From: Psammoneis japonica
Lineage: Eukaryota
Assembly (NCBI GenBank): GCA_008632985.1
Contig: QPGO01000047.1
Coordinates: 186,001-250,000 of the forward strand
Direction: 5' to 3'
DNA length: 64,000 bases
The notes beneath the pieces were generated by a model. That model did no database searches. It was not told where the DNA came from and saw only the letters and a program-made list of their open reading frames with translations. This document shows positions 26,240-64,000 of this stretch, piece after piece (position 1 is the first letter of the stretch; each line of letters starts with the position of its first letter). The position numbers and the translations under genes are program-made.

Positions 26240-26930
26240 AAAGAACCTTCCATCCATCGAAGCTTCCTGTTGAGTCACAATGACAGGTGTGCTAGCTGAG
26301 ATTGCTTCCAGTTGGACAAGAATCAAAACATGGATCCACCAACTTTTTGTGCAAGGGACCAATGTTGGCAACTTTCATCTTCCATGCAAAGTGTCCTGCA
26401 GCCACCATGGCGATCACTGACAAAAGGACCAATGGCGCAAGGAAGCAGCAGCAAGGTGATTGGTCTCTGACACTCTCCAACAGTCTTGTGAGTGATGCCA
26501 TCAGCCTCACAATGAACCCAATCAAGAGGGTCAGTCATGGTCCAGAGCACAAAAACCACAATTGTCACAACAAAAAGAGGCAACATTGGCCCCGTCATTT
26601 GTTGTGGTCCAACCCTGCAACACTTGAGTTGAAGGACTTTGAAGGACCTGCATCATCTTGGCAAACAAAGCTCCATGTGCCGTGGTGTGTTGCAGTGCAA
26701 TGAGCCATGGAGTTGCCATGCACGCCTTGTTCAGCTGGGTTTTGTTCCAGCCTGCTCTTTCATCAAAGGAAAAGGCGAACATTGCCAAGGCCACCAGCAA
26801 GGAACCATGAGAGACAAACCCACAGCACAGAGAAGGTGCTCAGATGGCTCTGCTCAATGCTGCCAACAAGCAACAGAGGCTCCACAGTGCCATTTTCTGC
26901 ACAAAAGGAGGCTCGCCTGAAGTGTCACTC
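26240..26930 (-). pseudogene. Decayed class C (7tm_3, GABA-B-like) GPCR fragment
   Basis: FDERAGW...ACMATPWL...GALFAKM and VLWTMTDPLDW...VGEC, spread across frames. Confidence 0.6.
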
Positions 26931-27024
26931 TGTTGGTTGCCTTGTTTTCCAGATGGGCAAAAGGCAGTCAGTGATGGTTGTGTTTCCTTGCCACGGACAA
27001 ACACTCCATGCCATCCATGGGTGC

Positions 27025-28320: not shown

Positions 28321-31300
28321 AGGCAAGACAGTGCTTTTCCTTGATGCACTTGCCAACTGTTTCCCAGTTTTGTGCTGGACATTGCACAACATGTGTTTCA
28401 GTCATGAGCACTGTCTGTTGATGCCTGAAGAAAGAAACTTTTCATGAAACCGTCGGCACTGAGAAGTTGCCATTTGACGCATTCAGCACCATTGCAACCA
28501 CAAGATCGAGCGTGCCAGTGTGGGATTGGTCCTCGCTTGTGCTCACACCTTTGGCATGCTGGTGTGTCATGTCTGCTTTCTGATTCAACCTGAATTTGCA
28601 GTTTTGAATCATCAACCAAAACAAGCATGCTTTTGTTGTTTTTGAAGTGTCTTTGACAAAGAAGCTCTCATTGATCTTTCAGTCAAGAAGAAGGGCGGCA
28701 ATGACAGCAATTGGCTGGGTGTGCATGCATTGATCATCGTGAGACACAAGGCATTGCTTGGGAGATTGCATCACTGGCATTCAGAGATCAATGCCTGAAT
28801 CCAGGTGTTGGAACAAACAATTGGAATGGAGAACAAAAAGAGCACTCTGAACTAAAAAACACCACTTCTTCAGCCTTGTGCTGCTGTGTCAACCAGACCT
28901 GGCCTGCTGCGCTCTCTGCTGGGCTTCTGTCCCTTGTTTTGGTTTCCCTGGTTGCTGCCAGAGGGTTGATTGCTTCCTTGCAGCCAACAGTTGATGGCCA
29001 TGAAATGAAAAGGCCTGCAAGGCTGAGCATCTTGAGGATCAAGCATCTGACAACAGATGTGGTTGGCAACAACATTGAAAAGCTGCATGAATGACAAAGT
29101 TCTGTGCATTCATTCTAGACACCATGGAATGTTTTCCTTCATTTGTCACCACAGAGAGGAGCCGCTGTCCTTTCCAATGCATGAACAAAGCCAAACTGTG
29201 ACATCAACACTCACCTGGCCATCTCCATTCTTCCACAATTTGTTCTCCATGTCCAAAATGAGCAAGGGTTTGGTTCACTGACTGCCATGGGTCTTGATCA
29301 AATGCAGAGTTGTTGTTTTGCATTGAAGCACCAATCATGCCTGGCTCACATTTTGTTCCGGAAAACACAAGTGATGGGGTGGGACCCACTGTTGCTTGAA
29401 CCTTGGTGTTTCAACAAAGACTGGCTGCTGCATCGTTTGAAGAGTTGAGTGGTGGAACCAGGGCACAAAGGGTGCATTTCTGTGTTGACAAGTGATGAAG
29501 ATGAAAAGCAACATCAGCAAACATTCTTGAATGAAAAGAAACATGGGCACAAAATTGACTTGTGTTGGGGGTGCATTTGAATGCAGTGCAACACAGTGAG
29601 TGCACCACACAGCATTTTGGATTGCACGACAAACTTGCACAATGTTGGCAAGTCTTTGATGTGCACAAAAGCTGTTTTGTAGTGTGAAATGGAGTCAAGA
29701 GATGCCCCCATGCATGCTCAATTTCCAGGGGTGTAAAACAAGCAGTTCATGAGTCCAGTGGTGACTCACGATCCTCGCGGATCTGCGTGCAACACACACC
29801 CAGCATCAGACAAAACAAAAATGCTGCCCGTTGCTTGACCAAGCCCAAGCAAGCATCTGAAGGAAACAGGATGGGCTGCTTTCTCCTCGTTCTGTGCAAA
29901 AACAGCAACAACATCTGCCAGATCAATGTCTTCATCTGGCATCTCCACATTCTCCAAATCTTGACCCTCTCCTTCCAGAGCAATGCCATGTTGCAACAGC
30001 CCATCATCTGAAGGTTCCTCTGAATCATGCATTGGTTCTTCCACATCTGCTGGATCATTCAAGGCATTGTCAGGTGCCTTGTCTGCTGCTGGAGCGACTT
30101 CTTTGGCAACAGCATTGTTGTCAATGGCAACAGCAGAATCAGCCAAGGGCTCCTCTTTGCACTCTCCTTCCAGCACAATGTTGTGATGCAATGACTTGAC
30201 ATCCACAGGATCCTCTGAATCATCTGTCAGCACATCCAAGGCATTGTCTGGCTCCTCACATGCTTGGACAATTGCGCCCACTAGAGCAACTTCCTCCACT
30301 GCAACAAGATCAGCAGCAGCAGCAGCAATGACAGGATCAGCAATTGGTCCCTCAACCACTGCATCTGCTGGAGTGACAATGACCTTTGACCAGCTCAGCT
30401 GCCACTTGAGTCTGCACCCATCCATGCCAATGATCACACCTTGGATGCATTTGATGCTCACAAATGTGTCAGTCTTGTTTCCACTTGTGCTCAAGCAGCA
30501 CAGCAGCCAATTGCTCATCATTCAGGGTGGGAATGCAATGCAGGCATCAAAGAATGCATTTGGCCACCCCACCAGTGGGGGCTGGAGGAAGGTCGCCAAC
30601 AAAGACATTCTTGATCAGTTCTTCATCGGCAGCCACTCTGATTCCCACTGACAACACTGCCAAGCCAGCCTGTCTTGCTGCTTGTCAATTCTTCTCAAAG
30701 CAAAGTCCAGCTTTGGATCTGACAGCACTGGAATCTTGGTTGCACATTTTGGATCTTGAAGAACTTTTGGAGCAGCCATGCCTGTTGGGATGGCACAGTC
30801 ACAAACACTGTGCACAGGTTCTTCAGCCCGGCAGTGGTCTCCATCTGGTGCTCCTGCGGCAAAAGCATTTGCACTTCAACAACAGCAGCCAAGTGACCAC
30901 AAACCACAAGGGAACACAGATGACACAATGCACAGTCCATGCAACTGATGCAACCACAAGAGCATCCAAAACAGCATTGCCCACTTGATCCCAAAGAAGT
31001 GTGGCAAGGTCATCAATTCCCACAACTTGGCAGCACAAGAAACAGACAGCGGTGCCAATCAACTTCAGGGAGCAGCATGGGAGCACCGCAGCAAATGCAG
31101 CAAGGAAAGCTGTGCAGACTGCAAGGACAAAGGGCACCAGTTCTTCAATCATGCAGCAAATTGTGTCCACGGCAATGCACGAGAAAATCCATGCTTCCCA
31201 AAGCAAACCACTGACGACTCAGCCGTGGTTTTTGGTTTGCCGTGAAACACATGCAGCAGGAGATTGACAAAGAGCATGATCAGTGCATTGTGTGCAATCA

Positions 31301-34300
31301 TGGTGGGGGCAATGGCATCAGAAAAAACAGATTGTCAACAGTGTGCTTCAATGCAAGCAAAACTTGAAATGGTGCAGCAAGCAAGACGTTGCTCATTGTT
31401 TGTGACTGGTGTTGTTCATGAACATGCAGAAACTGCTCTGGAAGAGCCCGCAGAAAAGCCAACAGTCAGCCACACTTTTCAAGTTGTGGTTGGATGTTGT
31501 GGCACATTTGCACTTGGTTGCTTGCAGGCTTCAAGCTGGAAACAAGAATCAGAGGCCAGGAGTGATGTTGGATGCACCCACAATGAATGTCATCCATTTT
31601 AGAGCCGTTCTCTTCAATGAAATTCAGTGTTGCCACAACAGAGCCCATTCTTCTCAGGCCCACCACAAACATGCAGCCTGCAGATTTTGGCGCTTGCTGC
31701 AGTGACACGCCACACCTCAAACTGGTTGAATGATCCTCCCGATCACACCATGGTTGGCTGACAATGAATGCATTCTTGATTGAAAACATCAACAGGGCAA
31801 GACTGTCCTTGTCAATGAGGAGCAGCCTTGCCAAGTCTGAGCTTGACAGAGATGGTCCTACAATCCAACAATGCAAGAGCCAAGCTGAGAACATCTTTGG
31901 ATTTCTTTTTGCTTTGTTGTGGCAACACAAGTGCCAACGGCGCACTCAGAAGCAAGTCACCAAGAAGCACAGTTGATCTTTTCAAACCACACGATTCAAA
32001 TGAAATGACAAATTTGGCAATGCCACACTTGTGGCTGAAAATGAGCATCAATGTGCAACAAAATGTCCTTTGAAGCCCAGATGACAGTGACCACCTGCTC
32101 AGCTGGTTTTTGAAAATTGCAACACCTGTGGAAGGCACAATTGCATGTGTGCAAAGTTCGTTGCTTCTTGTCAGTCAACATTTTCACCAAGGAGTTTTCT
32201 GAGGGGCTTGCAGCAAGCTGCTCCCAAAGAGCCAATTTCAACCTCCAAGACTGGCTCAATTGATGTTCCAAGTTTTGCAGCACTGTCACCTGCTGAGCAG
32301 AAAATGGAGCTGCTTGATTTGCTCCAACAAGCAGAGAGTGCTTTTGCGCTTGCCATTGATGTGCAAGCAACAACGGTCAATGGAGGTGTTTGTCCTGTGC
32401 TGTTTTGAGTCTCTCTCTCTCTCTCTCTCTTGGGCAGAAGATGGTGCATTCACAAGGGCTGCAGAGTTTCTCTGTTTTGTGCAAAAGACCACACAAAGGC
32501 CTGTTCCAGCTCCAGGTGATGCACGCAGGCTCAATTCCCATCACTGGCCCATTTTTGCATTTGGCGCAATGAACTCCTTCAAAATCGGTTTTTTCCAAAA
32601 TTGAATGGCGAGTGTGAGTGTGCACAAAACTGTTGTTTTTTGTGCACACTTGCCTTTCAATTTTCAAAACAATTGAATTTGAGGAATTTAATGTGCTGAA
32701 CTGCACAGAAAACCAGCCTCTTGTTTGATGAATTGCTCATCACCTGGGGCTGGAACAGGCCCACAGACAACAAGGTGCAGCAGCATGCATGCTTTGCTGC
32801 AAGCTTCACCATGACTGTCAAACACACAAAAATGACAGTTGTCAAAGATTGTTGTTGAGGAGCAGTGTGCGCACAACCTCTTGTTTCTCATTCTCCACCA
32901 CCAACAACCCCACGCAGCAGATGCTCCCCACTCTCAACATCTTCATCATTGACAAATGCAAGAGTTCTCACCTGCCTGCATCTCCTTCTCTGTGATTGGA
33001 TTTTTCCATGTGCAGCACATTTCCCATTGCTTGATCAGCTTCTGTTGTCATGGTGGTGCAGAAAGTGATGCATGATGCCATGTGTGACATGTGTGGTGGA
33101 TGCTGGGCTGAACCCGACAATGCCAGATGGGTGAATCAAGTCCAAAATGATGTCGTTCATGCTGAAAGTGTCAAGCCAGGGAAAATTAAATTGAGCCATG
33201 ATGTCCATTGCGCGGACCTTTCCAACTTGGAAGCCATTGACTGATTCTTCATTTGAGCACCAACCACAAGAGGCATGGTCAAGCTTCGAGACTGACAACG
33301 CGGTGCACTGATTTCTGAATTCCAAAGCACCTGCTCTCTGACAACAACTCCACCAGAACATGCCATTTGGGTTGCACACAGTTTTGTTGGCATCACTGTT
33401 TGCAACAAAACTCTGCCACATGTTGTTGTCATGGTGGGTGTGATGCGTGATGCATGAGATGCAGTGGATGATGTGGCACCCACTGAACCCGACAAGGCCA
33501 GATGGATGATTCAAGTCCAACCAATCAACTCAAATCAATTGTGACATCAGCTCGTGCTGAAAAACTTGGCAGGTGCAACCCAACCTTGACGTCCATTGTG
33601 TGGGCCTTTCCTGCTCCAGCAACAAAACAGCCCCAACACTGTGCAAGCTCACGCTTTTCATCCTTGCTTGCCCATCAACATGGAAAGCAACACAAGTTTG
33701 TTCTCACTTCTTGTTTGACAGGTGCTTTGTGAAGCAGGGGGGAAGTCAGTGCTGACCAGTTGCTCTTTTGTCTGTGATTGCATGGAAAGCCAATGGCTGT
33801 GCAAACACTCAACACTGGCACGGCGGGCTGGCGGTTGACGCTGGTGCTTTCTAAAAAGAATGTGTTGGACTGGGATGAGGAGTTTCTGCTTTTGATGCTC
33901 GTTGGGTGTGGCCCACCTGCGCAAATGTAACGTTCTTCTTGTGCATCAATTGATGAATTGATCCAGAATCCTTGAGTCAGGGCTGGGTTGAAAAATGACT
34001 TGCAGCTCCCTGCCCCCCCCCCCCCAACTTTTGCAGCCAAACACCTTGCCAAACCTTTGTGTTTGGACCATCAGAGATGGACATCTCAACCTGTCTGTTC
34101 TTTGTGTTTTTTGCTTGTTTTGCCCTGTCATGCAACAAAAAAAAACTCACAAACTTGTTGTCTCCTTGTGTCTCTCAACAGATTGTCGCATGCAATGGTG
34201 ATGCAGAAGAAGAAGCTCATTGGATGGAGATGCTTTTGAGAACTCGGGAATTGCACTTTTGGACCAAGCTTGCACTTGCATGGATTGGTCTCTTGGAGGA

Positions 34301-37300
34301 ATTGAAGGCTTGTTTGACAGAGTGGGAAACAGTCAAGTTGACACAAAAACAAGCTCTGGCACTTTTCATGGATGCTGTCAAGACACGATTGCATGGGTGA
34401 GGGCCACAAGCAGAAGAATCCCGCCTTGCACTCTGGAAAGTTGAGTCCAGAAATGAAAGCCTGTGTGGATGCCATTGTGAAGGCGATGGGCAAGTCACAG
34501 AACTGTCCAGTTGTCAGTGCCTCTCTGAAAGAGACTGTCACTTGTGGCTTTCATGGAAGCAAGAAGAGTGCACTCTTTGAGATTGAAAGTAAATTGGGTG
34601 TGGACGTGACGAAAGAATCCAAAAACAAGGCTGAGTGAAAAATTCTTTTTCGACCTGGCACTTTGTTTGTGATTCTTTTTTTTTGCAAACACAACAATCC
34701 CGAGTGCAGAAAGTGGAAGTTTGTTTCAGTGCAAGAGATTCATCAATTTTGGTGGAAATTGTCAGAGATGAGTGGAGCTTTAGATTTGCAAGATGAGTGG
34801 CAACTGCAGAGAACTTCCTGCTCCCTCCATCCGGAGGTGAGGTTGTGGGGGGGCATGTGGCAAAGACGGGTGTGCCCATTCCTGTCACAGTGTGTGCTGT
34901 TCTTGGCTGAGCAAGTGCATTGGATGCATTCTTGGAAGCAAGCATTTGCAAAGAAATGCCATCCATTGTTTTCATGCATGTTCTCTTTGTTGCATTCCAC
35001 AGCTTCATGCCCACCTGCTCCTCCCGTGTCTGGCCAGGTGGGGATGATGTGGGGTGTCCCCTGCATTGAAATTGCTTGCATTCAACTGGAGGTCTGCCAC
35101 AATGTCTGCAGCCACGGATTTTGATTGACAGAGTTTTGGGAAAATCTCTCACTCTGTCAGAAGCAGCCACAAGAGTTGCATCCACTCTGGCAGCCACAGC
35201 AAAATGCGTGCTTTTCCTTGGGACGGGCCATCAGGGCTGAATTTTGGAAAGTCTCGATGACACAAGTCCAGCAGAAAGCAACTGTGTCTTCCATCTTTGT
35301 GCAATTGTGCGATTGGCTCCAATGCATTTTTGCACTCCTGCTGCAATGCAATGACCATTTGACTGGCAACTCTGCACATGCAATCGTCTTGCTGCAATCT
35401 AAACCTGTTGAGCATTTCTCCAAAAAAAAAAAACAGCACCATCTTCTTTTGCTGCACTTGTGGCAACTAAAATGTTGCACATGATTGTGATTGCCATGTT
35501 GCAAAAATGGCACTCCTCCAGAAAACTGCTGTCTTTTGCAACACACATGATGTGAAGTGGTCGTGTGACACCCATGTGAGGAACAAGGCTTCTTTCCTGC
35601 AATTGCACTGCATCACGTCCTTGGCATTGTTGTGCTGCAAATGGTTGGGATCGCTTCACATTCCACCACCAGTGTGTGATCTTGAGTGCACTTGTAACTC
35701 TCAGGTAGAATTGCATGCACCAAAGTGCTGTTGTCAGTCCATGTGGCCATGCACTGGTCAAAGATTCATGCATGAACACAGATTGAAGATTTGATGATGA
35801 CACCACAATGACTTTTGAGAGAAGCACTTGTGTTGGGCCCTGTGAGGACTTTTTGCAAGAACCAGCATGGTGCAATCACCACCTTTGTAAAAATGTGCAG
35901 GACATGTGCCAAGAAACTCCAACTTTGCTTTTTGGTTGCTCTGGTTGCAATCAAAACAGCACCAAAAGACAAAAGCAATTCAACACAAAAACTTGCAGAT
36001 CACACTCCAAAATGCATGATGGATTTTTGGGAGAAAAAACTGGGTTGAAATTGATGCATCAGCCTTGTCAATCACAAAGCAAAGTGCACTTAATTGTCCA
36101 TTCGCAACCAAGGCACAACTCATGCAGGAATGTGCAGAAAATGCACTGGGCTCCTCATTCTGCACTTTTTCAATGATCTGGATGTGATCAAGTGCTGCTG
36201 AAAAATCAAAGACTGACATCATGACATTTTCTTGCCAAATGGCTCAAAATCTGCTCGCCAATCTGCTTCTGCTCACCTGAAAACTGCTCATTTGCAAGAA
36301 AACGAGCTCCCAGTGCAAGAAAATCTTGGTGGTCGTGCAAGCTGTTGCACGAGCATGACCCTGTGCAGAACAAGTTGTTTGTGCTTTCCCTCATTCTTTG
36401 GAGCAACATGCAGACTGCATGGAGATTGCCTGCACCGGCAGAAAGCCAGCAGAAGCAAGTGAAAAATCCACTTCATTTTTCTCGCAACATGGCCAAAATC
36501 TGCTTTGCTCACCCAACATGATGTGCCAGTTTTTGAGTTTTTTGGTGGCACTTGATGCAATTGAAATGGTGCCAAAATGCCCAGACCAATTGACCACCGA
36601 CATCACTTTTGCGGAAAATGGCAAACCACATGACAGAGCTTTGGGAGAAAAAACTGGGTTGAAATTGATGGCTGTGTTGAACTTGTCAAACAGAACACAA
36701 AGCACACTGTTTTGCCCAAAAAGCACACTTGCAATTGAAAAGCACACTTGAGACTGAATGCTCCCACACACAGAAATCCACACAGTCATCTGGCACATTG
36801 GAAAAGGTGCACTTGAATTGCACTTGAGCACACTTGTTTGTCTTTCCTCCATTTTTAAAATGGAGTTTCGTGCAACTGCTTCTGTGCTCCAGAGGAAAAG
36901 GCTTGCACTTTGGCATGTGCGCATGGCAGCGCTTGTTGCAGCGATGCAGATGCTGATCCAGCTCTTGCTGGAGGCCCATCCAACCAGCAGCAGCACATGT
37001 TCAACAAGATTTGTGTCGACAAGGCTGACAAGGCAGTTTTTTGATCAAATCTTTCGCCACCACGGGCAAAAGCTCATTTTCATTTTGAGCATTTGCGCCA
37101 TTCCACAGCAGAGCAGCTGTCACAAACAAGGATGAAATGGTGAAAGGGTGCTGTTTGCCATGACATGTGGCGATGCTTCATCGCAGCAATCTCTCAGAAA
37201 AAATGAGAAATGAGGGCCCTGCTTGTGTGTGCACAGTGCGAGCAAGACAGGGTGCAATGGCGCACACCATCCACACCCACAACAAAGAAAGACAAGTGGT

Positions 37301-38349: not shown

Positions 38350-40600
38350 CAAATGCAGACAAGCTGCAAGGATGATTCATCTGATGAACCACAAAGCATT
38401 GACTGCACCATGTGCATGCCTGAGAATGTGCTTGCCATGGTGCAAGAAAGAGCAACCATTTGCTTGCTGTTTTGAAATGAGTCCACTGAACAGCAAACTC
38501 AGACAAGCAAGATTGAGCTGTCAGAGCTTGACGTCAAAGCCATCCCCACTTTGTTGGGTTGCATGCTGGTGCTTGGATGCATGTGTGATTCCTTGCATTG
38601 CTTGCTTGTGGTTTCATTGTGAGCAATCATGTTTTGTGTTGGTTTTCTGATCATGTGCGTGCCTCCCCCCATGCAGCTTCTGCACCAGACACCCCTGAGG
38701 ATTGCTGCAAGCCTCTGGGGCATGTGAGCTGCATGAAAACACAAGCAGGGACATGATGCAAATGAACATGGAATTAATTTGTGCACACAAGTTTTGAGGG
38801 AAATCTGTGCGCTGAATCTGAGTCACATTTGGTGCTGACTCAGTCATCTCACAGGGACATCACAGCTGGCTCACTGATGTTGAATGCAGTCTTGAGTCAG
38901 CTTCACAGTGCAGTGTCTCATGGGCCACAATGGCATGTGTGTTGCTTTGGCAGCAGTGCAAAGACAGGTGGGCACCATCTTCTGAACTGGGGTGGTGTCT
39001 GGAGCTGATCTTTGAAGAGGGAGTCCACGATCATCTCAAGCAAAGATGTGCTGCTCTCATGATGGCAATGCTGAACCGTGCATGACAAATCTGCATGCTT
39101 TGGAGCATGGTCTCTGCCACTTGTCAGATGTCTTTCCAGATGTCTGATGCAGATGGCTTTCACCTTGCATGTTGTGCACTTGTGGGCTGCTGTGATGAAT
39201 TGTGTGGGAGCATGCAAGAGCCCTTGTTGCTTCAAAGTTCTGCTTTGCAAACTCTGATGGACATTGGACAGACAATCCTGCAAATTTGATTGGCAGAGTG
39301 GCAAGGACCAGTCTTGGGTCATCACCCCCCACCAGGGTCTCACCTGTGAGTGCTGGCAGGAATTGGCACTTGATCATTTCTTCCACATTGGCAAAAGAGT
39401 CACCACAGGCTTGTGCCACACATTGAGCACATTGCCGCTTGTGTTGCAGAGACTTCTGCAGGCCAGTGCATGCTGTCTGGGGGTGGCCGATCACTGTCTC
39501 AGCAAGTCCCTGGATGACCGAGGTCCACTCCTTGGTTGTCTCTGCCATCCATTCATCAAAGGCTTCTACATTCTCCTGCAAAACCTCCCAGGAGGTGGCC
39601 ACCAGTTTCAGCGGTGAAGCTGAGGTCTCTAAAACATTTCCTTGCACTCTCCAGGTTGCATTCTGGGACAACAAGAATGTTCTTGGAGTTGTCAGCAGGG
39701 CAGCATTCATGCCTTGGCCCTGTGGCTTGCCGTGTCAGGAAGAAGTTCTGCAGGTCTCGTGAAATGTTCCTGCTGCAGTGGAGCCATTGGCGCGCCATTG
39801 CTGGCTGGTGGTGAGTTGTCAAGAAGTGTCCACGTGTTGACAACGTTGCCACTGCTTTCTGTTGAGGAACCTTGTGCATTGACGCTCATGCTGCACGTGT
39901 TGTTGCAGCTCCTTCTTTGCATCTTGCCATGCTTTGCCCCCACTTGCACACTGTCTTTCTGCAGCACTGCTCTTCTGTTGTGCAGAGGGTCTCTGTCTCA
40001 TCCCCTTGGGCCTTCCCTGAGATGAGCACCTGGAGACAAGAGCATTGATTCTGCAGCACAATGGCCACGGCAATCCAACAATGAGGCCAAGTCACAGACA
40101 CGGCATTGAGAAGAGTTCACATCAAACATGGTGACTTGGAGCCACATTGTCTGAAGCTCAACAAGCTCTCAAGAGCTTTGGTCTGTTGTCATGTGTTTTT
40201 GCCAGAGAGTTTGCACCACCCCAATGCCTCCACACAGTGATGTGGATTTGGAGGACAAACAATGCACAATGGCAGCTCTGAAGTTGTGGATTGTTCCTTT
40301 TGCCTGTGAGCAGGCAATTTGCAGTCTGAAAGCTTTTGTGGCTCGTTTGCTTTGTTTGTTGGCTGGCGCCACAACAATGGTGCCAGAAACTGTGCATTGC
40401 ACCACTCTGCAAATCCACTGCACTCTCAGTTTGTGGAGTGCAAAAATTTAACTGCATTTGCCTTGTTCCATCACAAGTGACGAAACTCATGAGCCATTTT
40501 GGCTCATTTTGACTGTTCAACCCAGTCAAACAACCTGCTGTGTGGCCCTGCCTGTGAGGAACTTGTTGCATTTCTCTGTTCAGCTCATCTCATCATTCTT
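38350..40600 (-). mobile_element. Decayed non-LTR retrotransposon (RT C-terminal region plus probable RLE endonuclease region)
   Basis: SKNILVVPECNLE...GGHLLGGFAG, PQTACTGLQKSLQH, FLPAL...LATLPIKFAGL, ILRGVW; many frameshifts. Confidence 0.7.
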
Positions 40601-44382: not shown

Positions 44383-44649
44383 TCATCCCGACTCCTTCTG
44401 ATAGGCGGCTCCCATTAGCGCCAACAACCCAACTTGAGGACCGTTACCATATACAATTGTAGCAGTGTGCTTTTGCAAGATGGGACCAAGACGTTGCACC
44501 CCCTCGGCAATGTTCTTTGTCTTGCGCTGTACCGACACCGAGAGTGGCTCTCCACGGTTTAGCAAGGCATTTTCACCGAGCACCACAACAATATGCTGCT
44601 TCTTATTCGTGTTGGCGGGATGGGAAGGAGACAAATGCATTTTCTTCAA
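44383..44649 (-). pseudogene. Truncated carbamate kinase copy (first about 88 codons)
   Basis: Near-identical to 685-942 but ALGGN>VLGEN, HGNG>YGNG, a 2-codon insertion and a stop at the duplication breakpoint. Confidence 0.9.
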
Positions 44650-45315
44650 CCTCCTGTTGTATTGCGCAATTCCTGGTCCTCTAGAGAGCCACTAATAAAA
44701 TCTCAACTTTCTTGGAACGCACTCGATTTCGATGTCCGACAGTCAGAAAAGAAAAACTTGCAGACTCCTTATCGAACGACAATTATTATGAGGTGCTTTC
44801 TTGAATCAATCGTGATGTTTGTGTTTTGCGAATGCTACTCTGACACGACCACCCATCATGCCATGCGCGTTATTTCTGCTGCGCGCGCCTCGAGCAGCGG
44901 CTCGTCCTCTCTCATCCGTGCACACCACCATGCGTTTGCATCGATGTTGTGTGAACTCTTTCGGCATGATGATGTTCGCATGCCAAGAAGGAAGAATGAA
45001 TCACGTTGTAAAGGAGATTGTTTGCGCAAGCGATGGTTGACTGACTCTCGAAGTAACGACGTGAATGCACATTCCCACTCGCGCGAGAGGCGAGAGCTCT
45101 GTGAGTGCAAAAACCATCAGAGAGGGACACGACGATCGTGTTTGGGTAATCGTGCTCCAAAGTTGCGACAATTGGCACGGCAAGTAAACGCAATGGCAGA
45201 AGCGAGTTGGCTGGCCGCTGCAAACTAGCAACCATGGATACCTTACCGTTCTCTTCAAGAAAGGATGCTTTGATCATATGTGATATGCAACCTGACATGC
45301 TACAGTCTATAACGC
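44386..45315. repeat. Arm 2 of the inverted duplication (partner 1-942; may extend beyond the window start)
   Basis: Direct sequence comparison. Confidence 0.95.
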
Positions 45316-47749: not shown

Positions 47750-49760
47750 AGTCCGCCGGTAGTAGCGTATCGATCGATTGCGAGTGCAAGCTGTGACACG
47801 AACGACGAATAGTGCTTTTTATCTAGTTTACGACAAGACGGAGTGTTGATTAAATTTTTTTGTTTGTTTAATCTTTTTATTGTACAAGACTCTACTCATC
47901 TTGATTGAATGAAACCAAAATAGATTGCCCAACTGAATTAGAATGGCAAAGCGTCTCCTGCAGAGGGAGCAAGAGTTTCTCGTGTTGAATAGTTTCCTCG
48001 ACTTCAACTTTCCTTTCTCGATTATTAAACAGCCGCCCCTCTACTTTCGAAAAAGAAGGCACCACCTTCATACCGGTACGAATTTGGGTTTGAGTGCCGC
48101 ATGAATCTCTTATTCTCGTTCACATGCTGTTCGGAAACAGTAACATGCTTCGGAATCAGCTCAAATTAAATGTATATCCAATACGAGCTTGAATTCAAGA
48201 CCCAACGCAATCAACCAAACTCTCATTCAACAATATAAAGATGGTTGCCCTCTGATCTCGATAGCAAAGGCCTTTTTTCGGAAAAAGAGAGCCCGAGTTG
48301 AACACAGAATTCAACACGCAAACTCGTCACACCGCATCCACATGTGACACTCGGCAATCCTCCCCTATCGAACATCTTGTTGGAATAATCGTCACAAGAT
48401 TGCACTAACGATATCCCCTTCTCCCCATTGAGCACCTTACAATATGTTGCAATCCGGATCGTCGTCAAAGATGTCAATAAAAACCTGAAAGTGACCTGAG
48501 CCGAGCTGGTCCGTTAGGTGGTCCTCGGTGGTCTGCTTCTCGCGTCCGTCGCCCAATTTCACGTCGTAGAACGGGTCAAGGTCATCATCAAAATGGACCC
48601 TTAAAATCTTTGCTCTCCACGTCTTGTTTGAATGGCGATAATACACGTACTGTCCCTTCTTGAATTTGGACGTTGGCTCCTTCCAAGGCTTCTTGACACG
48701 GTCGTCGCGATGGCCCGACAGATCGTCCTCGGTTGATGGTAAAAACGATCCCGCCAAGTGCATGCGAATGAGAATAGCCAGAGTCACTACCAATATGAGA
48801 CGCAAGAGAAATCCCATGAGGCTACTGACATCAAAATTCTTGAAAGCCATGCCGATATGAAACACGACAACCGCAGCAGTCAAATCGAAGCGCTTCAAGA
48901 CGGCTGCTGCGCTCGCAAAGTCGACACGCTTGATGCATTCCTGGGAAATGCCAACAGCGAGTCCCATACACTTCAATAAGATGGTTTTGGACTTGATGGC
49001 AACGAAATGGAGTTGGCTCCAGATGGGAGACCCGATGATGGAGGACCAAATCGATTTGATAGTAACGTTCGGAAACCACTGCTGCTTGATATGCAAAAAG
49101 TCCTCCGTGAGCCCCAACACCCCTTGGTACAATCCATAGATAAACGTCGAGAATATCGTGATAGAAACAACATCGAGATCTTGTAGTAAGGCGCAATAGC
49201 CGACCCAAAGAGCAAAACGAAGCCAATCGCTCGCGCTCTTGCGTTGAATCATAACTGTAATCAAGTCATAGTGGCTGACATTGATAACGGCGTTCATAAA
49301 GAGGATAGAGGACATCATGGTGATGATGGTGATGCAATGTCTTTGTTGCTTGTACCTTCAAAGAAATTGTGACGGCTTGAATCGATGCCTTTCGAAAGGC
49401 GCTCGGACAGTCGTCAGTACAAAGACACGTAGAATGTACGAGGAATCCCGGCAAAAAGAAAGTCTTGGCACCGTTTCACCATACGGTATACTAATATCGG
49501 GCTGGATATATGTATTGGCCGAAACCGACCTCTAACATCATGGTCACTACCGGTAAACTTGTTCCGACATGGTGGTGTTGCGATCAATTCGGTTGCTTTT
49601 TGACGCTTTGATGGATGTTTTTGGGTCAGGAAAGAAGTTCAACATTTGCCATTATGTCTTTTCGTCTCCCACGTATCTTATATTTAATGACTTGAAGTGG
49701 ATGCAATTGTGTGACGATGTCTGTTTCGTAGGATGAGCTTTTTATTTAGGGGACTCTTTC
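47750..49760. repeat. TpA-intact copy of the segment at about 23230-25230
   Basis: Colinear alignment; normal TA content. Confidence 0.95.
48437..49318 (-). CDS. Hypothetical membrane protein with a C-terminal SH3/Tudor-like barrel; 5' end uncertain
   Basis: Hydrophobic segments, then FKKGQYVYY...AKILRVHFDDDLDPFYDVKLGDGREKQT. Confidence 0.6.
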   Translation of the reverse strand: MMSSILFMNAVINVSHYDLITVMIQRKSASDWLRFALWVGYCALLQDLDVVSITIFSTFIYGLYQGVLGLTEDFLHIKQQWFPNVTIKSIWSSIIGSPIWSQLHFVAIKSKTILLKCMGLAVGISQECIKRVDFASAAAVLKRFDLTAAVVVFHIGMAFKNFDVSSLMGFLLRLILVVTLAILIRMHLAGSFLPSTEDDLSGHRDDRVKKPWKEPTSKFKKGQYVYYRHSNKTWRAKILRVHFDDDLDPFYDVKLGDGREKQTTEDHLTDQLGSGHFQVFIDIFDDDPDCNIL

Positions 49761-50410
49761 TTCATACACACTGTTTCTAACCTCTCACTCTTCTCTCACT
49801 GGCGATGCCCCACACCCACGATGGCGATCAATCAATGAGGTGCGGCTGTCATCAGAGCGGCATTGACAATATACTGTAAATGATGTTCGCACACGTCCTG
49901 TTCAGAATGCCAGGGTTGTAGGTGCGTTGCCAATTCCAAGAGACAGGGCGTTCTGACAGTGCTTTTCCGGCAGGAAAACACCTGGAGATGGGTGCATTTC
50001 CAAAAGTCCAATGCAAATTGTGCGCATGTCTGTCCCACACATGCCGAAAGGATTCGTGGGCCTGTGCAATCAACATCATGGCATTGTCTGTTGTCTGACG
50101 ACAGGCTCTCCCGGTGTCTCACGAGATTTGTCTTGCGACGAATGGAAACAAGAGGCAAGTCGAGATCAGTCATCAACTCGACAAATGATGCGTTCAATTT
50201 TGTCTGCATTGGCATCACAGGCACCCCATTCGTTGATGACTGTCCTGTCTTTTGGCTGTTTCTGGAATGAGCTGAAAGGGGACATTTCTGATCTTGTGGA
50301 CCGAAGCTTTTGTGCTTGTTTGAGTGAAAGACTCTCAAGGAACGAGTTTGAGGTCGTTTTCAAGGCAAAAATGGCGACATTGTGCAGTGGAACATGCATT
50401 CTCTGATTTC

Positions 50411-50535
50411 GCTGGCTTGCAGTCCGCCGCTGGTTTTGAGGGACTTGACTCCAATCATCTGTGGAGGCAAAAACGACTGTGCGACAAAACAAAGTCAGTG
50501 TCGAGGTTTGCACAGGAAGCGTGTCATCTGAAGTG
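50411..50535 (+). pseudogene. Decayed fragment of the isochorismatase-TTL gene (homologous to about 45399-45530)
   Basis: Shared strings ctggcttgcagt, gagggacttgactc, acaaagtcagtgtc; the TA sites are converted. Confidence 0.85.
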
Positions 50536-51899
50536 TCATGGTGCGAGCGACAGTGGCTGACAGTGTGTGACAGCATGGTGTCAGGTGTCACCGGCACATT
50601 CCTGGTGCAGTCGAGTTGAACAAAGAACAAAGCAGCTTCCTCGTGATGGGACGAAATGTCATTGCTTGCCAGAGATGTTGTTTGGCAACAGCATGACAAG
50701 AACCAATCGCAGCCATGCTTCATTGCAATGGCACTGGCCTGCAATGCTGGGACAAGTGTGCCATGTTGAATGCAACAACAAGCATTTGTTGCAGGATCTT
50801 CTCTCAAGAACAAGCACATTGTTTTGATGCACATTCCAGCAGTGTTCACGGCGCGAAATTGCGCGACATTGTTTGAGATTGTCCAACTTGCAAGTTGATT
50901 GGCAAAGCTGACAAGCAAAAAGAGGAAGAGAATGCACTCAAGAACCACAGGCGTCAGAGCAAGCAACCTTCATGATGGCACATGAATCATGCAATTTCCT
51001 TCAGCATGGGACTTTCATGTTTGGAATTGCATGCGAGCGGTGCTTGAAAGAGTGGAAGCAGTGCTGGTCCAAAATCAAGAATGCCACAACTCTGTTCAAG
51101 AGCAAGATGTGCACATCATGATGACTTTGTTGCTCATTTCATTGGAGCACCAAGAATCAGCCTTTTCCTTCCAGAATGCCCAATATCTGAAGCACTGATT
51201 TGACAGATGAGATCAGGGTTGAAATCCCTCGTGATTCTTGCTTTGGCACTTTGACTGATGTGTTGATGGACAGTTTCAAGGAGCACACCACTCTCTTGAT
51301 GCTGGTGCTTGTCATTCTCTTCTCACACTTGATGGTCCAAACACAGCATGACAAGCAAAGATTGGAGTGCCTTTCAAAGCACACAGCACTTTGAACAACA
51401 TCTTTTGACCAACAAATGGAGTGGCAGTCAACTCGATGCACAGTTTTCCACAAAAATCCTTGGACATTGTTTTTGTGCAAATCAAAATTGCAAACGTCAT
51501 CAACGAGTGCCATTTCGATGCGTGCACTCTTCTTCAAGATGTGGCTTGGCAAGCAAGGTGATTGGTGCACAGTTGTTTTTGACAGAGGATGATTGCTCTT
51601 GCAAGATTTGGTCTTCATGACTGGGCATTGCTGACGAACTTGAAAACGCACTGAAAGAGAAAAAGCATTGCACGTCGCCACAAAGCCCGAATCTTCCCAA
51701 CCCCGGCCCACTTCCTGCACAGCACTCAATCATGATTTGCTTTGTCTTTGAAGGCCAGGACATGAATTGTGGGAGGATGCAGTGCCTGTCATTCAAAACT
51801 TAATTTCCAATGAGCGAATTTGATGTGTTGGGCTCTTTGTCAAAACTGCGCAAAAGTCATTGCTGTGTCTGTTTCGAATCTGACCTTGCTGCGATCGCC

Positions 51900-52135
51900 T
51901 TCCTCATTGTCACGCCTCAGATTTGTTGCACAAAAGAGGGTTCTCAAGATTCCGTCAATGCTGCTGAGCGAACATTGGGTCCCATTGACATTTTGGCAGG
52001 CAACCATGGAATCGGATGGCTGCTGAAAAGCCACTTTATGAAACAGATGTGGAGCAATGTCGGCGCTCCATGGCAACAGACCTCGATGGCCCCTTTCACC
52101 TAACAAGGTTTGTGTCACTGGACATGGTCCCAGAG
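51900..52135 (+). pseudogene. Decayed short-chain dehydrogenase/reductase fragment
   Basis: AERTLGPIDILAGNHGIG followed by SMATDLDGPFHLTR. Confidence 0.6.
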
Positions 52136-54739
52136 ATTTGGTTGATGTGTTGGTCTGCACATCTTCAACTGCAGCTGCTAAGGAGCAGAACCAATGGTTG
52201 GATGCAATGGGTCAAAGGCACCTCAACAAAGAAATGAACCTCTCAGACTTGGAAATTCACTGGGGCCACAAGACTTTTGCACTTGAACTTGCAGCTCTGC
52301 ATTGCCTCTTGATCATTGGAGCACAGATGCAGCCACTGCATGGCGAAGCAAGGACGGGCTGAAACTGCATTGGGGAAAGCGTCGCTGTCTCTCAAACAGA
52401 CTCAAAAGTTCTTGTGACAACAAACGGAATGCTGCACAAGGCACAAGCCAGAAATGGGGCAGAAAAGGCACATTCTCCTGTTGTCTGTTGTTCCCTTTTG
52501 TGCTTCAAAAGACTTGGTGGGTGCTGCACTCACCTTTAAATCGCTGCACAAATCCAAATGGTTTTAGAAACAATGCAAATGCTGTGTCCACAAGTGTTTT
52601 GTAGAATGGCGTCAGCCCAAGGAGACTCCGTCCATCATGTCCGACAGTGGGTTCACCCAGGTTGACATCTTGATGCTGCAGGCCACGATCAAAGGTGGCA
52701 ACATCACATCTCTTCAATCACAAGAAGTGCGAGTCCTGCGGATGTGCTGCACTGGTTGACGGATTCCAAAACAGAACACAACATGGCCCTTCAACATCCT
52801 TGAACATGGCAGTCGGTGGTCTCACTTTGTGTCGTGTTGCAGATGACATTGTTGAAAAAACAAAAAGAGCACAAGGTCTTTGTTTGCCTTGCATTTGCCG
52901 CATGCTCAATGGCAGCCCAGGGATGTTTTCGTTTCATGTTCACCACTGTCAAGCACAAGGAGCACATCGCTCATTTGCTGTCCTTCGATTTGTCTCCATT
53001 TGGTCACTGAGTTGCTGGTGCATCTCTTTCAGTTGTGCTCCTGTGGAATTCAAAGGCTGTCGGCAGACTCGCTGCCACCATGCCAATTTTGTGGTGTTGT
53101 TTCCCGCACTCCTTTCCTGATTGACAGTTTGTTTGAGCTTTTGTTTGTGACTCCATTTCTGAAACAGGACCATTTAGATGGCAATGCCTGTCAAGCCACA
53201 CATGAGAAAATGAACAAGCCTCCCATGTCCATGAAGGACGGCCTTGCGTTTGAGTCAATCCCTCAGAACCATTGGCAACACTGGCCGCCGTGTCGCAGTT
53301 GGCATCCGCAGTGGCTTTGATTGCTTTCTTCCACTCAGTGCTGACAAAACCATCTGCATGCTTTTCGAGAAGATGCAAGAATGAGAGAGGCACAGAGTGC
53401 TCCAGAGTCAGAAAAGGTTGCAAGACCACCTCGGATGAATCTGGACACTCAGCCAACCAAAGAGAGTCGGCATCAGCCATTTGGCTTTGCTGTTTCTTTT
53501 GTGCCTGTCCCAGCTTCTGACTGCCGTTCATGCCAGTGTGCACTCTCCACGGGCAACTCCCGACAAACAGGTTCTTCCCCGCACTTGCTGGAAAGTGCAT
53601 GAGTTTGGCACCGGAGTGGGCATCCAACACCTTGAATTCGTTGGTGCTGTCTGCAAGGACGCGCATTGGAAGTTTGAGTCAAACAGCTTGGTCGACGATC
53701 TCCACTTGGATGGAAGGAGTCTTTTCCACCACAAGAGAGCCAGCTGGGTTTGCGGTGCAGGCAAATGCCATGGAAGACTCCAGAAAGCAAAGGCAAAACA
53801 AAAAGCTGGGCATGGTTGGTGCTCAGCTCAAATTTGACATCCCGGCAAAGCTGAGTGCCACAAAGCAGATTGTTTCTGTGGGTTCATTTCTCACTTGGAA
53901 TCTTCATTAAAACGCTCCACTGCATGGCTTAAAAATGACAAACAAGACGGAACATCAGTGACACAAGCCTGCAAGTTCCAGGGCAATCAGAGCATGCAAA
54001 GAACAACACACTCCACATGCAGGTCAAGACCGCGACGAGAAATGTGACAATGATCATGACCCACACGCTCCATTCAAAAGGCTCCAAGAAGGACCAAATG
54101 TCAAGTTTTGAATCACTCTCCTAATTGCCGACCGCACATTTCCATCAATCACCCTCTCTGGAAAGCTCGCTCTGGAGTTGATTCTTTGAACGTCCTCCCG
54201 CAGCAATGTCATAAGTTTGAAGCGTCCATTGGAGCACTTCATCTGCACTCATGTTCCCCATTTCTGCTCTTATGTCAGTCACGAAAATGCACCAAAGGGA
54301 GCCAAACGTGAACCTCAAGGCCCTCGAAGAGCATCACACAACAGACCTGTTCTATTGTCCACACCTGCTGCATGCCGCTCACACACACTCTGGCGGTGCG
54401 AGATGCTGCAGACTAGTCAAAGGCGGGTGTTCTGAAACTGGGCAGTTCCTGAGCGATGCATGCCATCTTTTGTATGCTGAATTTGTGGATGAGAAAGAAT
54501 GCCAGAGAAAGAATGCCAGGAAGGGCCATCTGATGGGCATCTTGGAAGAAAATAGCATGGGTGTTCTTTTAACGGTGCTTGTGCCGATTGCATTCATGCG
54601 AAACAAGATTCGGTCAAACCATGGAGAAGTGAAAGTGCATCGTCATGGCAGTGCGTACCGCTAGAGACTCGTCGTTCTGCGAAATAAACAGTAGCATAAA
54701 AAAGAACCTATCCATTCTGATATGATTCTATTTTAAAGA

Positions 54740-60817: not shown

Positions 60818-61499
60818 AAGGGAAAGGGAGAGAGGAGAGAGAACTAAGGTACATCAGCAACAACACGAGCTTTCCGCAAACCCTGCGGCGGCATCATACC
60901 GGTACTGTAGCATCTCGCATCGCATCGCAACTGCGCGAGGTCCGGTGGGTTCGGTCCTCGAGCTATACTCTCCATCGTTTTGCTTTGAATGTTTTTTGAC
61001 ACCTGTGGACAAACGGGACACTGCGTAGCCAGGGTGTACTTCAGTACTCAGTGCTTCGTGGACAAGTGTACCAAGGCGTACCAACGTGTATCAAGTGCTT
61101 CACGAACGATGGGGAGTGAAAAACTTGCGCGAAAAATCGCGCACGCTGAGCAGGTAAGTCAGACGGGACTCATTCAGTCACGTCTGCACGAATTTCCTCA
61201 AAACAACACCCACCATGCACCATGAGAATCGGAGCGGCGTTTTAGACTGTTGCCAATCCTTTCAACAATATCAACACTATCTACTAGTCTTGACTATCGT
61301 AAAGAATCAACTTATGTTGCTTGTTTGAAGGTTTTCAGCCAATTGTAAGATGAAAACATGGATTTTGTAATTGCACCACGATTGATTCGACACTCATCAT
61401 TTTCGCTCTTCACTGCATGTCGCGATCGAATCGTATTGCGCCTTTGTTTCATTATGTCACTCATTTTCTTTGTAATGGTCATCTTTGTCACTCATGCAC

Positions 61500-62900
61500 A
61501 GAGGCTTGTGATGAAGCATCTTGCAGAATGGGAGGTGCGGCACGCGGCACTGTTGTCGTCCAGACAATGTGCAGTGGCTGTCATGATGGTGGACACTGCA
61601 GAAGGGCACGTGGACATGATGAGTTGGCTCATTGAGAAGGCATTGCTCGCACTGCTGCTGTCAAGCTGGGAAACAACCAATCAACAGCTGATTTTGTTGG
61701 TTGCGCTTCTGTCCTTCTGTGAAAGCTCTTTGACTCCTGCTTCGATGGATCGCTTGTGCGTCCATCTCAACGACTGCGCCGCTGGTCGTGAGCTAGAACT
61801 GCTGACTGTTGCAAGGGACCACGCGTGGAGGGAAGCTGGTCGATGATTTCCTGGCCCCATCTTCGAAAAATGCCAGAGATCTGCACACGAAACTGGCAGT
61901 GTCATTGACTCTTCGCCACTTTCGAATCAGATGGCCCCGGATGGCAGCAGGTCAGCGGAAGAAGGAATGTGTCCTTTTCAGGTGCTGGAGCGGCGTTCAC
62001 AAATGCAACTCGCTTGACCTTCATGCAGTTTGAGCCCGTGCTGCTTGAGTTCCTGTCCATTGAACATTGGCCACACTGAGTCGGTCGACAACATTGATGT
62101 CGATGTTGACAGGCTGCTTTGCGTTGCACTGGCTTCGCATCTGCAATCCCCTTGGCCTTGCCTTTTCGATGTAGCATGACTGCTCTACAAGGAACCAGGC
62201 CTTTTGCTGACTACAAACAAAAGCCTCCAACGCTGCTTCAGTCGTGCTTGAGACCTGCCAGTCTTCATTGTGCAATGTGCTGGTTCGATCTCCCTGCTGC
62301 ACTCGGCTTGTCCGACAAATTGACGCAATGAATGGAACTCGAAGCCCGCCCCTTGATTTGGCAAAGGAACTCGTGTGCCTGTGGAAGGAGTCTTTTAAAA
62401 GAACAAGCACTGCTGTCGATGCAAGTGAAGATCTCCCACCTCCGCTTGGCATGGAATCAGTGCGGTTGCAAGCGGTGACAGCAGGGTGCATGCTTCCCTT
62501 TGGCAGAAAATCCCTCCCACCGAAGCTCGCCCCAATGATTCGATCTCTCGTGACAGCCCTGATGAATGAGTCAAGTGGATCTCGACAGGGATGGAAATTT
62601 CTTCATGTGCTGCTCAGATGTTGAAGCTTCCATCTGTTGGAGACCATCTGAGAGTGAGGCACAGAGTGATGGAGAACATCTGCGTCCTTGTGGAACATGA
62701 GAAATCATCCACTGGCCTTGATGTCCGTGCCAAAGGCTTCATTGTTGCGGCCGCACATGTTCTTGAGTGACAAGTCCATCATCTTCCAAGTCACTGCACC
62801 ATGAATGCCCTCCTTCAATTTGGGCGAGAATGAAGCTGTTGAACAGGTGCAGTGCAATCAATCTGCCACAGACGCATTTTGGGGGTTGTGTCGAAATCGC
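61500..62900 (+). pseudogene. Decayed BTAF1/Mot1 N-terminal HEAT-region fragment
   Basis: WEVRHAALL and LPPKLAPMIRSLVTALMNE resemble Mot1 WEVRHGGLL and LPxKLNPxIRxLM motifs; broken frames. Confidence 0.55.
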
Positions 62901-63874
62901 CATGACGCAATGCCGATTTGTTCGCTCGCTTGACAGACTTCACAGTCCAATCTCTCGTGCTTGTCACTTTTGGGTGCCCCAGTGTCCGATGCCTTTCCCT
63001 GGCAGCGTTTGAGTCATCATTGTGAACTCAAAAAAGGGTTGAGGATTTCGGTGAAGCATCTCAGAGATGCTCAAAATGACACATGCATGCCAGCGAGTTG
63101 CACCTTGCTGCAATCGATCATCAAATCTGCTGGGATGTGAGTTCGCGAGTTTGTCAAGCTTCTTCTGTCCATTGTGATGTCTCTCATGACTGATTCATTA
63201 GTTGATTGCCCGACAATGGCTGCTTGGAGTTTTGCTGACTTCGGCACGATTGCCCCTTTGGTGCGAAGGGACCAGTCATGTGTTGTTGGAGCAACGGACG
63301 CCAACGATTCCACCACAAAGGTGAGAGGGCAAGAGCCAGCACACACCACCGAGACATTGTTCCTTCACATGAATGCAAACAAAAGGATCCAGCAGGGGCT
63401 GGCTTCGATGATGGAGGAGGAATCCGATGGCAGCATTGTTGTGCATGCCGGCAACCCCACGTTGAGACTTGCACTTTACGACCATGTCGGACGAAGAGCA
63501 AGAACCACACGATGAATTTGGAAATGCACTGGCCCTGATCTAGGTGACGATTCCTCCTCTTCTTCTTCGGATGAACATGATGAGCATCCACAAGCTCCTG
63601 ACGATGCGTCCGACGTCTCTGAAGAAGGCTGTGGCGGTGGTGCCATGGTGATCCCCTCGGATCATCAAGAAGAAGCAGAAGCAGAACCTGTGGGTGTGAT
63701 TGTCTTGCACAAAGACAAGGAGCATTGTCCTTCTGCCAATGAGGTTATGGCGAAGAAGTGCGGACGGCTGTTTTAGATGAAGATGCCATGGATCTTGACG
63801 TGCCCTTGGTGGAGCCCATTCAGACAAAGAAAAACGCCGTTGCTGCTGCTGGTGGTGGTGGAGTTTCGGATGTG

Positions 63875-64000
63875 TCTTGCCATTCGCGAAGCCGTCTTGG
63901 GTTCAAATCATCTGGACATGGCTGCCAGTTGCAACAACATTGCTTTGGTTCTCGAACATCAGGGCAAGCACGAGGAGGCCTTGATGGAGCATCTCAAGGC
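63875..64000 (+). pseudogene. Decayed kinesin-light-chain-like TPR repeat
   Basis: LAIREAVLGSNHLDMAASCNNIALVLEHQGKHEEALMEH; consensus Tyr positions read as C or H. Confidence 0.7.

Follow-up and report, generated by a model that had tools for sequence, protein, structure and literature searches.

TpA loss and the fate of tyrosine codons in TA-poor tracts of a Psammoneis japonica contig

Gene remnants in one part of a diatom genome carry cysteine or histidine where their families might be expected to carry tyrosine, and they do so within DNA that is almost free of the dinucleotide TA. The question raised by this locus is whether TA has been lost inside such DNA or gained outside it, and what kind of process could be responsible. 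A preliminary description argued for loss, and proposed that proteins are inactivated by the removal of Tyr codons and of TAA/TAG stops instead of by the creation of stops. The window analyzed here is the whole 64,000-nucleotide stretch, positions 186001-250000 of contig C49, from an assembly of 91.4 Mb in 597 contigs.

Composition and extent of the TA-poor tracts

A two-state segmentation of the window yields four TA-poor tracts with sharp edges, covering 45% of its length. The observed/expected ratio (o/e) of TA is 0.04-0.07 in these tracts and 0.55-0.60 in the rest of the window (101 TA for 7,549 T in 28,902 tract bases versus 1,436 for 9,197 elsewhere, Fisher p = 7e-269). At the same time TG and CA are raised to 1.45-1.78 and CG is lowered to 0.35-0.74. 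The tracts, to which no strand applies, are:

17521-18793: TA-poor tract (TA o/e 0.036)
20662-41417: main TA-poor tract, 20.8 kb (TA o/e 0.053, CG 0.35, TG 1.78, CA 1.75)
49923-54270: TA-poor tract (TA o/e 0.044, CG o/e 0.48)
61476-64000: TA-poor tract with TPR motifs (TA o/e 0.068, CG o/e 0.64)

CpG loss is strong in the core of the main tract. The last tract extends about 6 kb past the end of the window (TA o/e 0.03-0.11 in the first 6 kb of locus L007), and the final 126 bases of the window (63875-64000) contain no TA. Tracts cross unrelated neighbors over up to 20 kb. When 83 tract ORFs of at least 112 aa were scanned with Pfam, two COPB1 fragments alone scored above the curated cut-off, and no viral family did. 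Upstream of the first tract, the last six TA before the edge (17414-17513) are all of the TAA type (five YTAA and one ATAA), which looks like partial editing of the edge with TAY going first.

One internal duplication pairs a TA-poor copy with a TA-normal one:

23264-25247, no strand: TA-poor “after” copy, partner of 47769-49772
47769-49772: TA-normal “before” copy, 83% identical to 23264-25247, with an ORF at 48437-49357 on the minus strand

The 84 TA of the “before” copy correspond to 31 TG, 28 CA and 15 retained TA in the “after” copy, which has two new TA; no Pfam family was found for ORF 48437-49357. An inverted duplication (1-941 versus 44387-45315, 95% identical) has 29 and 31 TA, both copies being TA-normal.

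Direction of the change in gene remnants

Two fragments of COPB1 lie in the main tract:

27021-28862, plus strand: COPB1 fragment that retains its intron and carries CDIV and NLCAR, 73-77% identical to the intact gene on contig C88
21288-21835, plus strand: second COPB1 fragment (Pfam Adaptin_N)

The intact gene has an 845-aa exon. Intact COPB1 is 72-82% identical to the 120 homologues listed, and those with a name come from diatoms. A DNA search with the window fragment gave 73 matches, from which 20 loci were taken, namely the intact gene plus 19 more; together with the window they yielded 11 copies classed as TA-poor and 12 as TA-normal on the basis of TA content. In the TA-poor copies, 22 of the 389 TA of the intact gene are kept, while 170 have become TG, 125 CA, 4 CG and 68 something else, versus 462 of 685 kept in the TA-normal copies, a contrast that is partly circular because the sorting used TA content. 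Outgroup tyrosines and their Cys/His products are free of this circularity. Counting as conserved the residues found in at least 90% of 18 aligned outgroup proteins, the TA-poor copies keep 3 of 62 Tyr (33 are now Cys, 17 His and 9 other, at 15 distinct sites), and the TA-normal copies keep 93 of 108. The other 19 residues are kept in 1197 of 1608 cases in the TA-poor copies (p = 3e-30 against Tyr, which overstates independence because the copies share ancestry). Within the window, fragment 27021-28862 has kept 2 of 60 TA, 8 of 99 CG and none of 8 conserved Tyr, its intron being covered and mutated, and fragment 21288-21835 has kept 2 of 23 TA and 1 of 4 conserved Tyr.

An alternation of Cys and His cannot fix the direction of change by itself, because an ancestral Arg codon (CGY) would yield the same pair through CpG decay. 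Here this origin is excluded, since the outgroups carry Tyr. NLCAR and CDIV were proposed to derive from NLYAR and YDIV, and both derivations hold: the Cys codons are TGT at 28312 and at 27852, and the corresponding columns, NLxA and HDxDI, have Y in 119 of 120 homologues (one without a match) and in 117 of 120 (three without a match).

Effects on reading frames can be followed in the same copies. The 195 changes in the COPB1 frame comprise 73 silent ones, 53 from Tyr to Cys or His and 69 other missense changes (33 Thr to Ala), with no stop among them. The terminal TAA became CAA in three copies and TGA in two, and is unchanged in one. Stops were gained by other routes in 12 of 2,691 codons of TA-poor copies versus 32 of 4,997 in TA-normal ones; as the latter carry stops too, these copies are dead fragments regardless. 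Two side observations concern the repeat itself. At least 20 places in the genome carry a copy of the 3' part of COPB1 together with as much as 3 kb of the sequence that follows it (27021-29300 and L029-L047). Behind the functional gene on C88 (L028), a TA-poor zone begins about 400 bases past the stop, with 1 TA in a 210-base stretch that has 11-18 in TA-normal copies, and functional COPB1 is spared directly beside a tract.

The other remnants are:

61509-63324, plus strand: partial dead BTAF1/Mot1-type copy (PF12054 match in an 1806-aa frame), with an intact copy on contig C1
63837-64000, plus strand: TPR pseudogene (Pfam TPR_10, E = 1e-8)
63930, 63969 and 63990, plus strand: TPR motifs SCNN (TGC), GKHEEA (CAC) and MEHLK (CAT)
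39057-39734, minus strand: remnant of a retroelement reverse transcriptase (RT) ORF with ACTGL, 33% identical to protein P0122 (RVT_1 match)
39470-39468, minus strand: Cys codon (TGC) of ACTGL

The BTAF1 ghost adjoins the TPR ghost on its upstream side. The 71 TA of the intact C1 gene are represented in it by 32 TG, 27 CA and 4 TA, and by comparison with that gene alone 1 of 13 Tyr is kept, 6 being Cys and 5 His. For the TPR repeats, the SYNN position is Y (TAC) in all 7 repeats of the largely TA-normal paralogue L004 (EY in 3), and 13 repeats taken from TA-poor DNA have TAC (4), TGC (7) or CAC (2) there. The nearest copy, L077, retains SYNN at the window's SCNN repeat, and SCNN was correctly traced to SYNN. 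The companion claim, that GKHEEA derives from GKYEEA, did not fare as well: the motif is present, but the GKx position is Phe in 16, Leu in 2, His in 2 and Tyr in none of 20 related repeats. Because CAC is one step from TAC, a GKY ancestor is nonetheless plausible. In the L004 array (contig C310), the middle kilobase has a TA o/e of 0.30 and the repeats include EY, EH and EC variants; this array is partly edited.

The RT remnant, which we take from its motifs to be of the non-LTR type, has 103 matches in the genome, and the best 12 loci are all TA-poor across the match. The column of the ACTGL cysteine, said to have been the tyrosine of AYxGL, is mostly Y in 150 RT proteins (Y 86, F 20, H 10, L 6, C 2, gap 26), in agreement with that claim. 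Related RT elements at 79 metagenome loci, about 56-62% identical in DNA to the copies of this genome, gave AYxGL 52 times (Y 42, F 5, H 3, C 2) and WxADD with Y 45, F 4 and H 2; in the best 12 genome copies WxADD was found seven times (Y 2, C 2, H 3). When the mutated RT ORF was used in a word-seeded search, one protein came back; its ACTGL match is query-biased and was not taken for a natural Cys. P0122, an RT protein from a metagenome, has C at both YADD and AYxGL, and C or H at 4 of 11 consensus-Tyr columns. In 129 RT proteins with at least five consensus-Tyr columns, none reaches 40% C/H and 6 reach 25%, so this protein-level screen showed no wide spread.

The central claim of the preliminary description is thereby borne out: outgroups and intact genes carry Tyr, hence TA was lost inside the tracts and not gained outside them. 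For COPB1 and RT, where naturally occurring Cys or His in functional homologues was looked for, the homologues carry Tyr, in RT for the most part; this residue disappears far faster than the other conserved ones in COPB1, and BTAF1 keeps it at 1 of 13 positions. The proposed consequence is confirmed in part. No change creates a stop, but TAA and TAG prove to be the most resistant TA contexts and not preferred targets, and inactivation through Tyr loss can be read, at the sequence level, for the retroelement RT motifs only, the COPB1 copies being already dead.

Target, trigger and candidate mechanisms

Rates were counted at sites with unchanged flanks and leave-one-out support, by comparing TA-poor with TA-normal COPB1 copies. 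A>G at TA occurs at 118 of 157 sites versus 25 of 476, yet it is not raised at AA (20/754 versus 29/1320, rate ratio 1.21, p = 0.55) or at CA (21/871 versus 48/1468), and is slightly raised at GA (32/745 versus 36/1476, p = 0.02), this excess coming from GAC. GAC>GGC itself (17/178 versus 6/340) is possibly a weak second target, or an effect of shared ancestry. Non-CpG C>T, C>A, A>T and transversions do not differ significantly; the equality of non-CpG C>T and of transversions means that the copies are of like age and that greater age is not what sets the TA-poor ones apart. CG>TG is found at 173 of 534 sites versus 44 of 1069. CA>TA is found at 5 of 859 versus 43 of 1455, a low value that would fit continued erasure.

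The products at 395 sites include 177 TG and 134 CA, with a strand term of 1.25 (1.02-1.61), so that strand balance is imperfect, with a slight TG excess. TG and CA nevertheless occur in similar numbers within single copies, which requires both strands. At 34 of 50 sites in COPB1 both products occur, TG in one copy and CA in another, and between the tract shared by the window and L007 and the 89% identical L077, converted sites agree at 33 positions and differ at 20. Of the 11 TA-poor COPB1 copies, 7 still have the intron, and it is mutated. The use of both strands, the mutated introns and the mixed outcomes together place the change on DNA, after duplication and on either strand.

The target extends to the base that follows. 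When strand competition is modeled, the rates relative to TAA are 3.4 for TAC (2.2-6.2), 1.5 for TAT (0.9-2.9) and 0.74 for TAG (0.43-1.45). TA survival, taken from 119.5 kb of TA-poor versus 163 kb of normal segments, in which survivors may include new TA, is 0.47 in TTAA, 0.27 in CTAA/TTAG and 0.18 in CTAG, down to 0.005 in GTAC and 0.003 in ATAT. Both methods place TAY above TAR and disagree on the order inside each pair. With TAY preferred, Tyr codons are the best substrate and TAA/TAG the worst, and the density remaining in TA-poor DNA is 17% of normal for TAA, 11% for TAG, 4% for TAC and 1% for TAT. Per kb over six frames, TAT falls from 22.8 to 0.33, TAC from 26.2 to 1.03, TAA from 17.2 to 2.97 and TAG from 18.8 to 2.05; TGA rises from 37.9 to 48.1, and all stops together fall by only 28%. 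We regard it as nearly certain that TpA was lost in the tracts through A:T to G:C changes, made in place, on either strand and separately in each copy, at the target 5'-T-A-Y-3'. The first change removes TpA on both strands, so that each site ends as TG or CA and the process saturates.

As 12 of the 23 COPB1 copies are untouched, and duplications of 2.4-6.1 kb at 90-96% identity stay at a TA o/e of 0.55-0.69, duplication alone is not the trigger. CG loss is confined to TA-poor COPB1 copies, among which it is correlated with the loss of TA (Spearman 0.84, n = 11). In Phaeodactylum tricornutum, transposable elements are described as targets of CG methylation (PMC9998398), and the tracts may likewise be a methylated, silenced compartment. 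Very probably, the process is targeted to a chromatin domain, most likely a CpG-methylated, transposon-rich compartment, and not by sequence pairing. A C5 DNA methyltransferase profile (PF00145) has 27 matches in the genome. Several copies of one such gene, at L058, L059 and L060 (contigs C301 and C297), are embedded in DNA with a TA o/e of 0.07-0.10 and are Tyr-poor; possibly they are carried by a mobile element.

For the chemistry, adenine deamination by an enzyme of the TadA/ADAT2 fold, acting on transiently single-stranded DNA, has in our view an even chance of being correct. Steered by the chromatin domain, the enzyme would convert adenine to hypoxanthine, to be read as G at replication. 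Retroelement proteins would be permanently ruined (RT YADD becoming CADD or HADD), along with gene fragments in the same domains. In tRNA, the edited A34 is preceded by U. The TadA-derived editor ABE7.10 favors 5' YAY (PMC10188366), but it edits CA as well as TA, which counts against deamination here, where CA is not raised. An endonuclease V homologue, also counting against it, is present in the genome and could repair hypoxanthine; the glycosylase MPG/AAG (PF02245) gave no match in the genome, which does not show its absence. Taken as a whole, this is the best explanation, and we put it slightly above even.

Profiles PF14437, PF00383 and PF02137 recovered one TadA-like protein with the RNA-type Asp (contig C38), one ADAT2-like protein and two A_deamin loci (contigs C40 and C79), besides deaminases of the dCMP, guanine and RibD types. 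No special deaminase was found in this set, which by motif reading is ordinary and has no fused chromatin reader. The ADAT2-like gene (contig C26) has HAE and PCIM-C followed by CRNDRFGG. The preprint on Bigelowiella natans discussed below names HxE-PCxxC and an Asn for its ADAT2 homologue; as this Asn is common in ordinary ADAT2, finding it says nothing about DNA activity. At L051 (contig C79), a deaminase-domain frame is fused to a putative domain that we take from its motifs to be a 2OG-Fe(II) oxygenase. Tet_JBP (PF12851) has no match in the genome, nor in 14 controls, which makes this result uninformative.

Several other processes have to be weighed against deamination. Most serious, though unlikely, is an error-prone polymerase of the Pol eta type that inserts G opposite T when it repairs damage to methylated DNA, for example the T:G mismatches left by 5mC deamination. 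It would account for the joint variation of CG and TA loss across copies, and in somatic hypermutation the mutation of A/T is the work of Pol eta, with a WA hotspot (PMC6423074). That hotspot however includes AA, where no rise was counted, transversions are not significantly raised, and the metagenome loci L125 and L166 differ at 22 of 51 TA sites but at 2 of 77 CG sites, showing TA loss without CpG decay. Only slightly less probable is a modified base, either a T in RTA oxidized or otherwise modified to pair with G, or 6mA that is then deaminated. As the change is symmetric, A>G at TAY is indistinguishable by sequence from T>C at RTA, and the latter fits equally well; a writer enzyme would also explain the strict dinucleotide and the restriction to domains. 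Against this stand the match of the TAY preference with a TadA-type active site and the fact that known eukaryotic 6mA occurs mainly at ApT, not TpA.

Fixation by reverse transcription of ADAR-like RNA editing in a UA context is very improbable. The two A_deamin loci, the many retroelement targets and the slight TG excess on the reference strand speak for it, yet it is largely refuted by both-strand changes within single, intron-bearing copies, and the tracts run across unrelated neighbors. We give just as little credence to an assembly or base-calling artifact, in which miscalls in long reads at a modified palindrome would produce strand-symmetric, random TG and CA. Contigs of sequencing run X1, which would derive from accurate short reads, contain 94% of 1,026 31-mers sampled from window 26500-36400, and six listed X1 contigs of 961-1754 bases have 0 differences to the main tract. 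X1 may be the assembly's own sample, in which case it is no independent strain, but the signature is also present in separate public metagenome assemblies, and it arose de novo in lines of Bigelowiella natans, as reported in the preprint discussed below. At 29592-29593, one X1 contig has TG where the assembly has CA, which we read as another allele, or a copy with another outcome. X1 contigs matching exactly between 27415 and 40099 have mean depths of 59-71, compared with 51 and 112 in two listed contigs of the flanks; these may be single-haplotype contigs, but depth is no measure of copy number. A further run, X2, skips a CT..AC stretch in the way an intron would be spliced out. It covers genes on the flanks but few tract bins, and its missing coverage was not used as evidence. 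Finally, the reverse direction, with ancestral tracts and RIP-like CA/TG>TA gain outside them, can be dismissed, for although a pairwise comparison cannot polarize the change and diatoms are reported to have a RID-related DNMT4 (PMC9998398), with C5-methyltransferase matches in this genome as well, the TA-bearing state is shared by outgroup COPB1 homologues and intact single-copy genes, and the TA-poor state breaks invariant Tyr.

Metagenome relatives and known systems

The pairwise signature appears in 3 of the 79 metagenome loci, many others having no close partner and so not being comparable. L125 and L166 are 96.9% identical with a background divergence of 1.4%, and their TA and CG counts, given above, make TA loss separable from CpG decay. 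L125 and L147 differ by TG or CA at 20 of 35 TA sites, as against 1 of 39 in a control pair of like identity (L099/L103). In the two pairs, both of which share L125, sites with no TAY side were changed in 3 cases and kept in 20, while those with one or two were changed in 32 and kept in 23 (p = 3e-4). As judged from these sequences, a second organism, the host behind the metagenome loci, shows the same TAY-biased TpA change. L119 (1500-4450) has a second half with TA o/e 0.13-0.27 in which TAG is over-represented among survivors (30/54), and L135 and L139 have smaller TA-poor patches; these three possibly represent further hosts. With less than even confidence, we suggest that diatoms, chlorarachniophytes and at least one environmental organism might share a natural adenine deaminase of DNA, built on the TadA/ADAT2 fold and directed to silenced chromatin. 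It would erase TAY until saturation and disable mobile elements through missense changes that leave no new stops, as an A-to-G counterpart to defense by RIP and APOBEC.

Such a process would have practical consequences. As TA-poor tracts keep long stop-poor frames, gene callers can be expected to annotate Tyr-poor ghost proteins as genes; L125, with its open 1178-aa frame containing WHADD and ACSGL (HADD at the RT motif), is a case, and P0122 may be another. A natural DNA adenine deaminase, if real, would be relevant to base-editor work. This saturated diatom provides dozens of before/after copy pairs and a TAY motif with which candidate enzymes can be tested, and the lineage is reported to have CRISPR tools (PMC9998398).

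Among known systems, repeat-induced point mutation (RIP) is alike in that dinucleotide-specific, saturating transitions on both strands ruin mobile elements in repeat DNA. Fungal RIP, an ascomycete process of RID/DNMT4-type enzymes, turns CpA/TpG into TpA, makes stops, and is triggered by duplication. The diatom process instead removes TpA without making stops, and leaves untouched 2-6 kb duplications at 90-96% identity; it resembles RIP in effect and departs from it on both defining points. The targeted mutational genome defenses known to us, RIP and APOBEC, change C to T. ABE7.10 shares A>G on DNA, the 5' and 3' pyrimidine preference (YAY) and the disfavoring of AAA, but is engineered, Cas9-guided and accepting of CA as well as TA (PMC10188366). 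Pol eta is likewise A:T-directed with TA among its hotspots, but includes AA, needs AID and mismatch repair, and does not saturate (PMC6423074).

The nearest parallel is the chlorarachniophyte B. natans, in which the signature has been described once, in a 2026 preprint (Mettrop et al., bioRxiv 10.64898/2026.01.13.699255), so that an A-to-G defense is on record from that preprint only, and without an enzyme. Our literature search, with most subscription journals outside its reach, found no report of TpA hypermutation in a diatom, and among the matches it listed no paper on a natural DNA adenine deaminase. The preprint reports 231 mutations that arose de novo in two viral inserts, nearly all TpA>TpG/CpA, as part of a hypermutation of integrated NCLDV and virophage DNA that continues, in some lines only, at roughly 6e-7 per site and generation; an adenine deaminase (ADAT2) is proposed there, not shown (10.64898/2026.01.13.699255). 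The two organisms are alike in that only TpA>TpG/CpA occurs, on both strands and confined to regions, and in that long-term TpA-poor coding sequences of B. natans are enriched in RT and DDE domains; the regions hit here include the best 12 RT loci and host-gene fragments, with intact COPB1 and BTAF1 spared. They differ in lineage and in stage, the change having been seen happening in B. natans and being known in the diatom from its end state only. The NCLDV region has an o/e of 0.45, whereas the diatom tracts are near saturation and fill almost half of the window. Further differences from the accessible B. natans account are that in the diatom host-gene fragments are hit, CpG decay is coupled and the TAY preference has been measured; the words “diatom,” “tyrosine,” “stop codon” and “CpG” do not appear in the main text of the preprint as accessible (10.64898/2026.01.13.699255). 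What the present analysis adds to this comparison is outgroup polarization, the TAY motif, a homology-independent trigger and a second organism.
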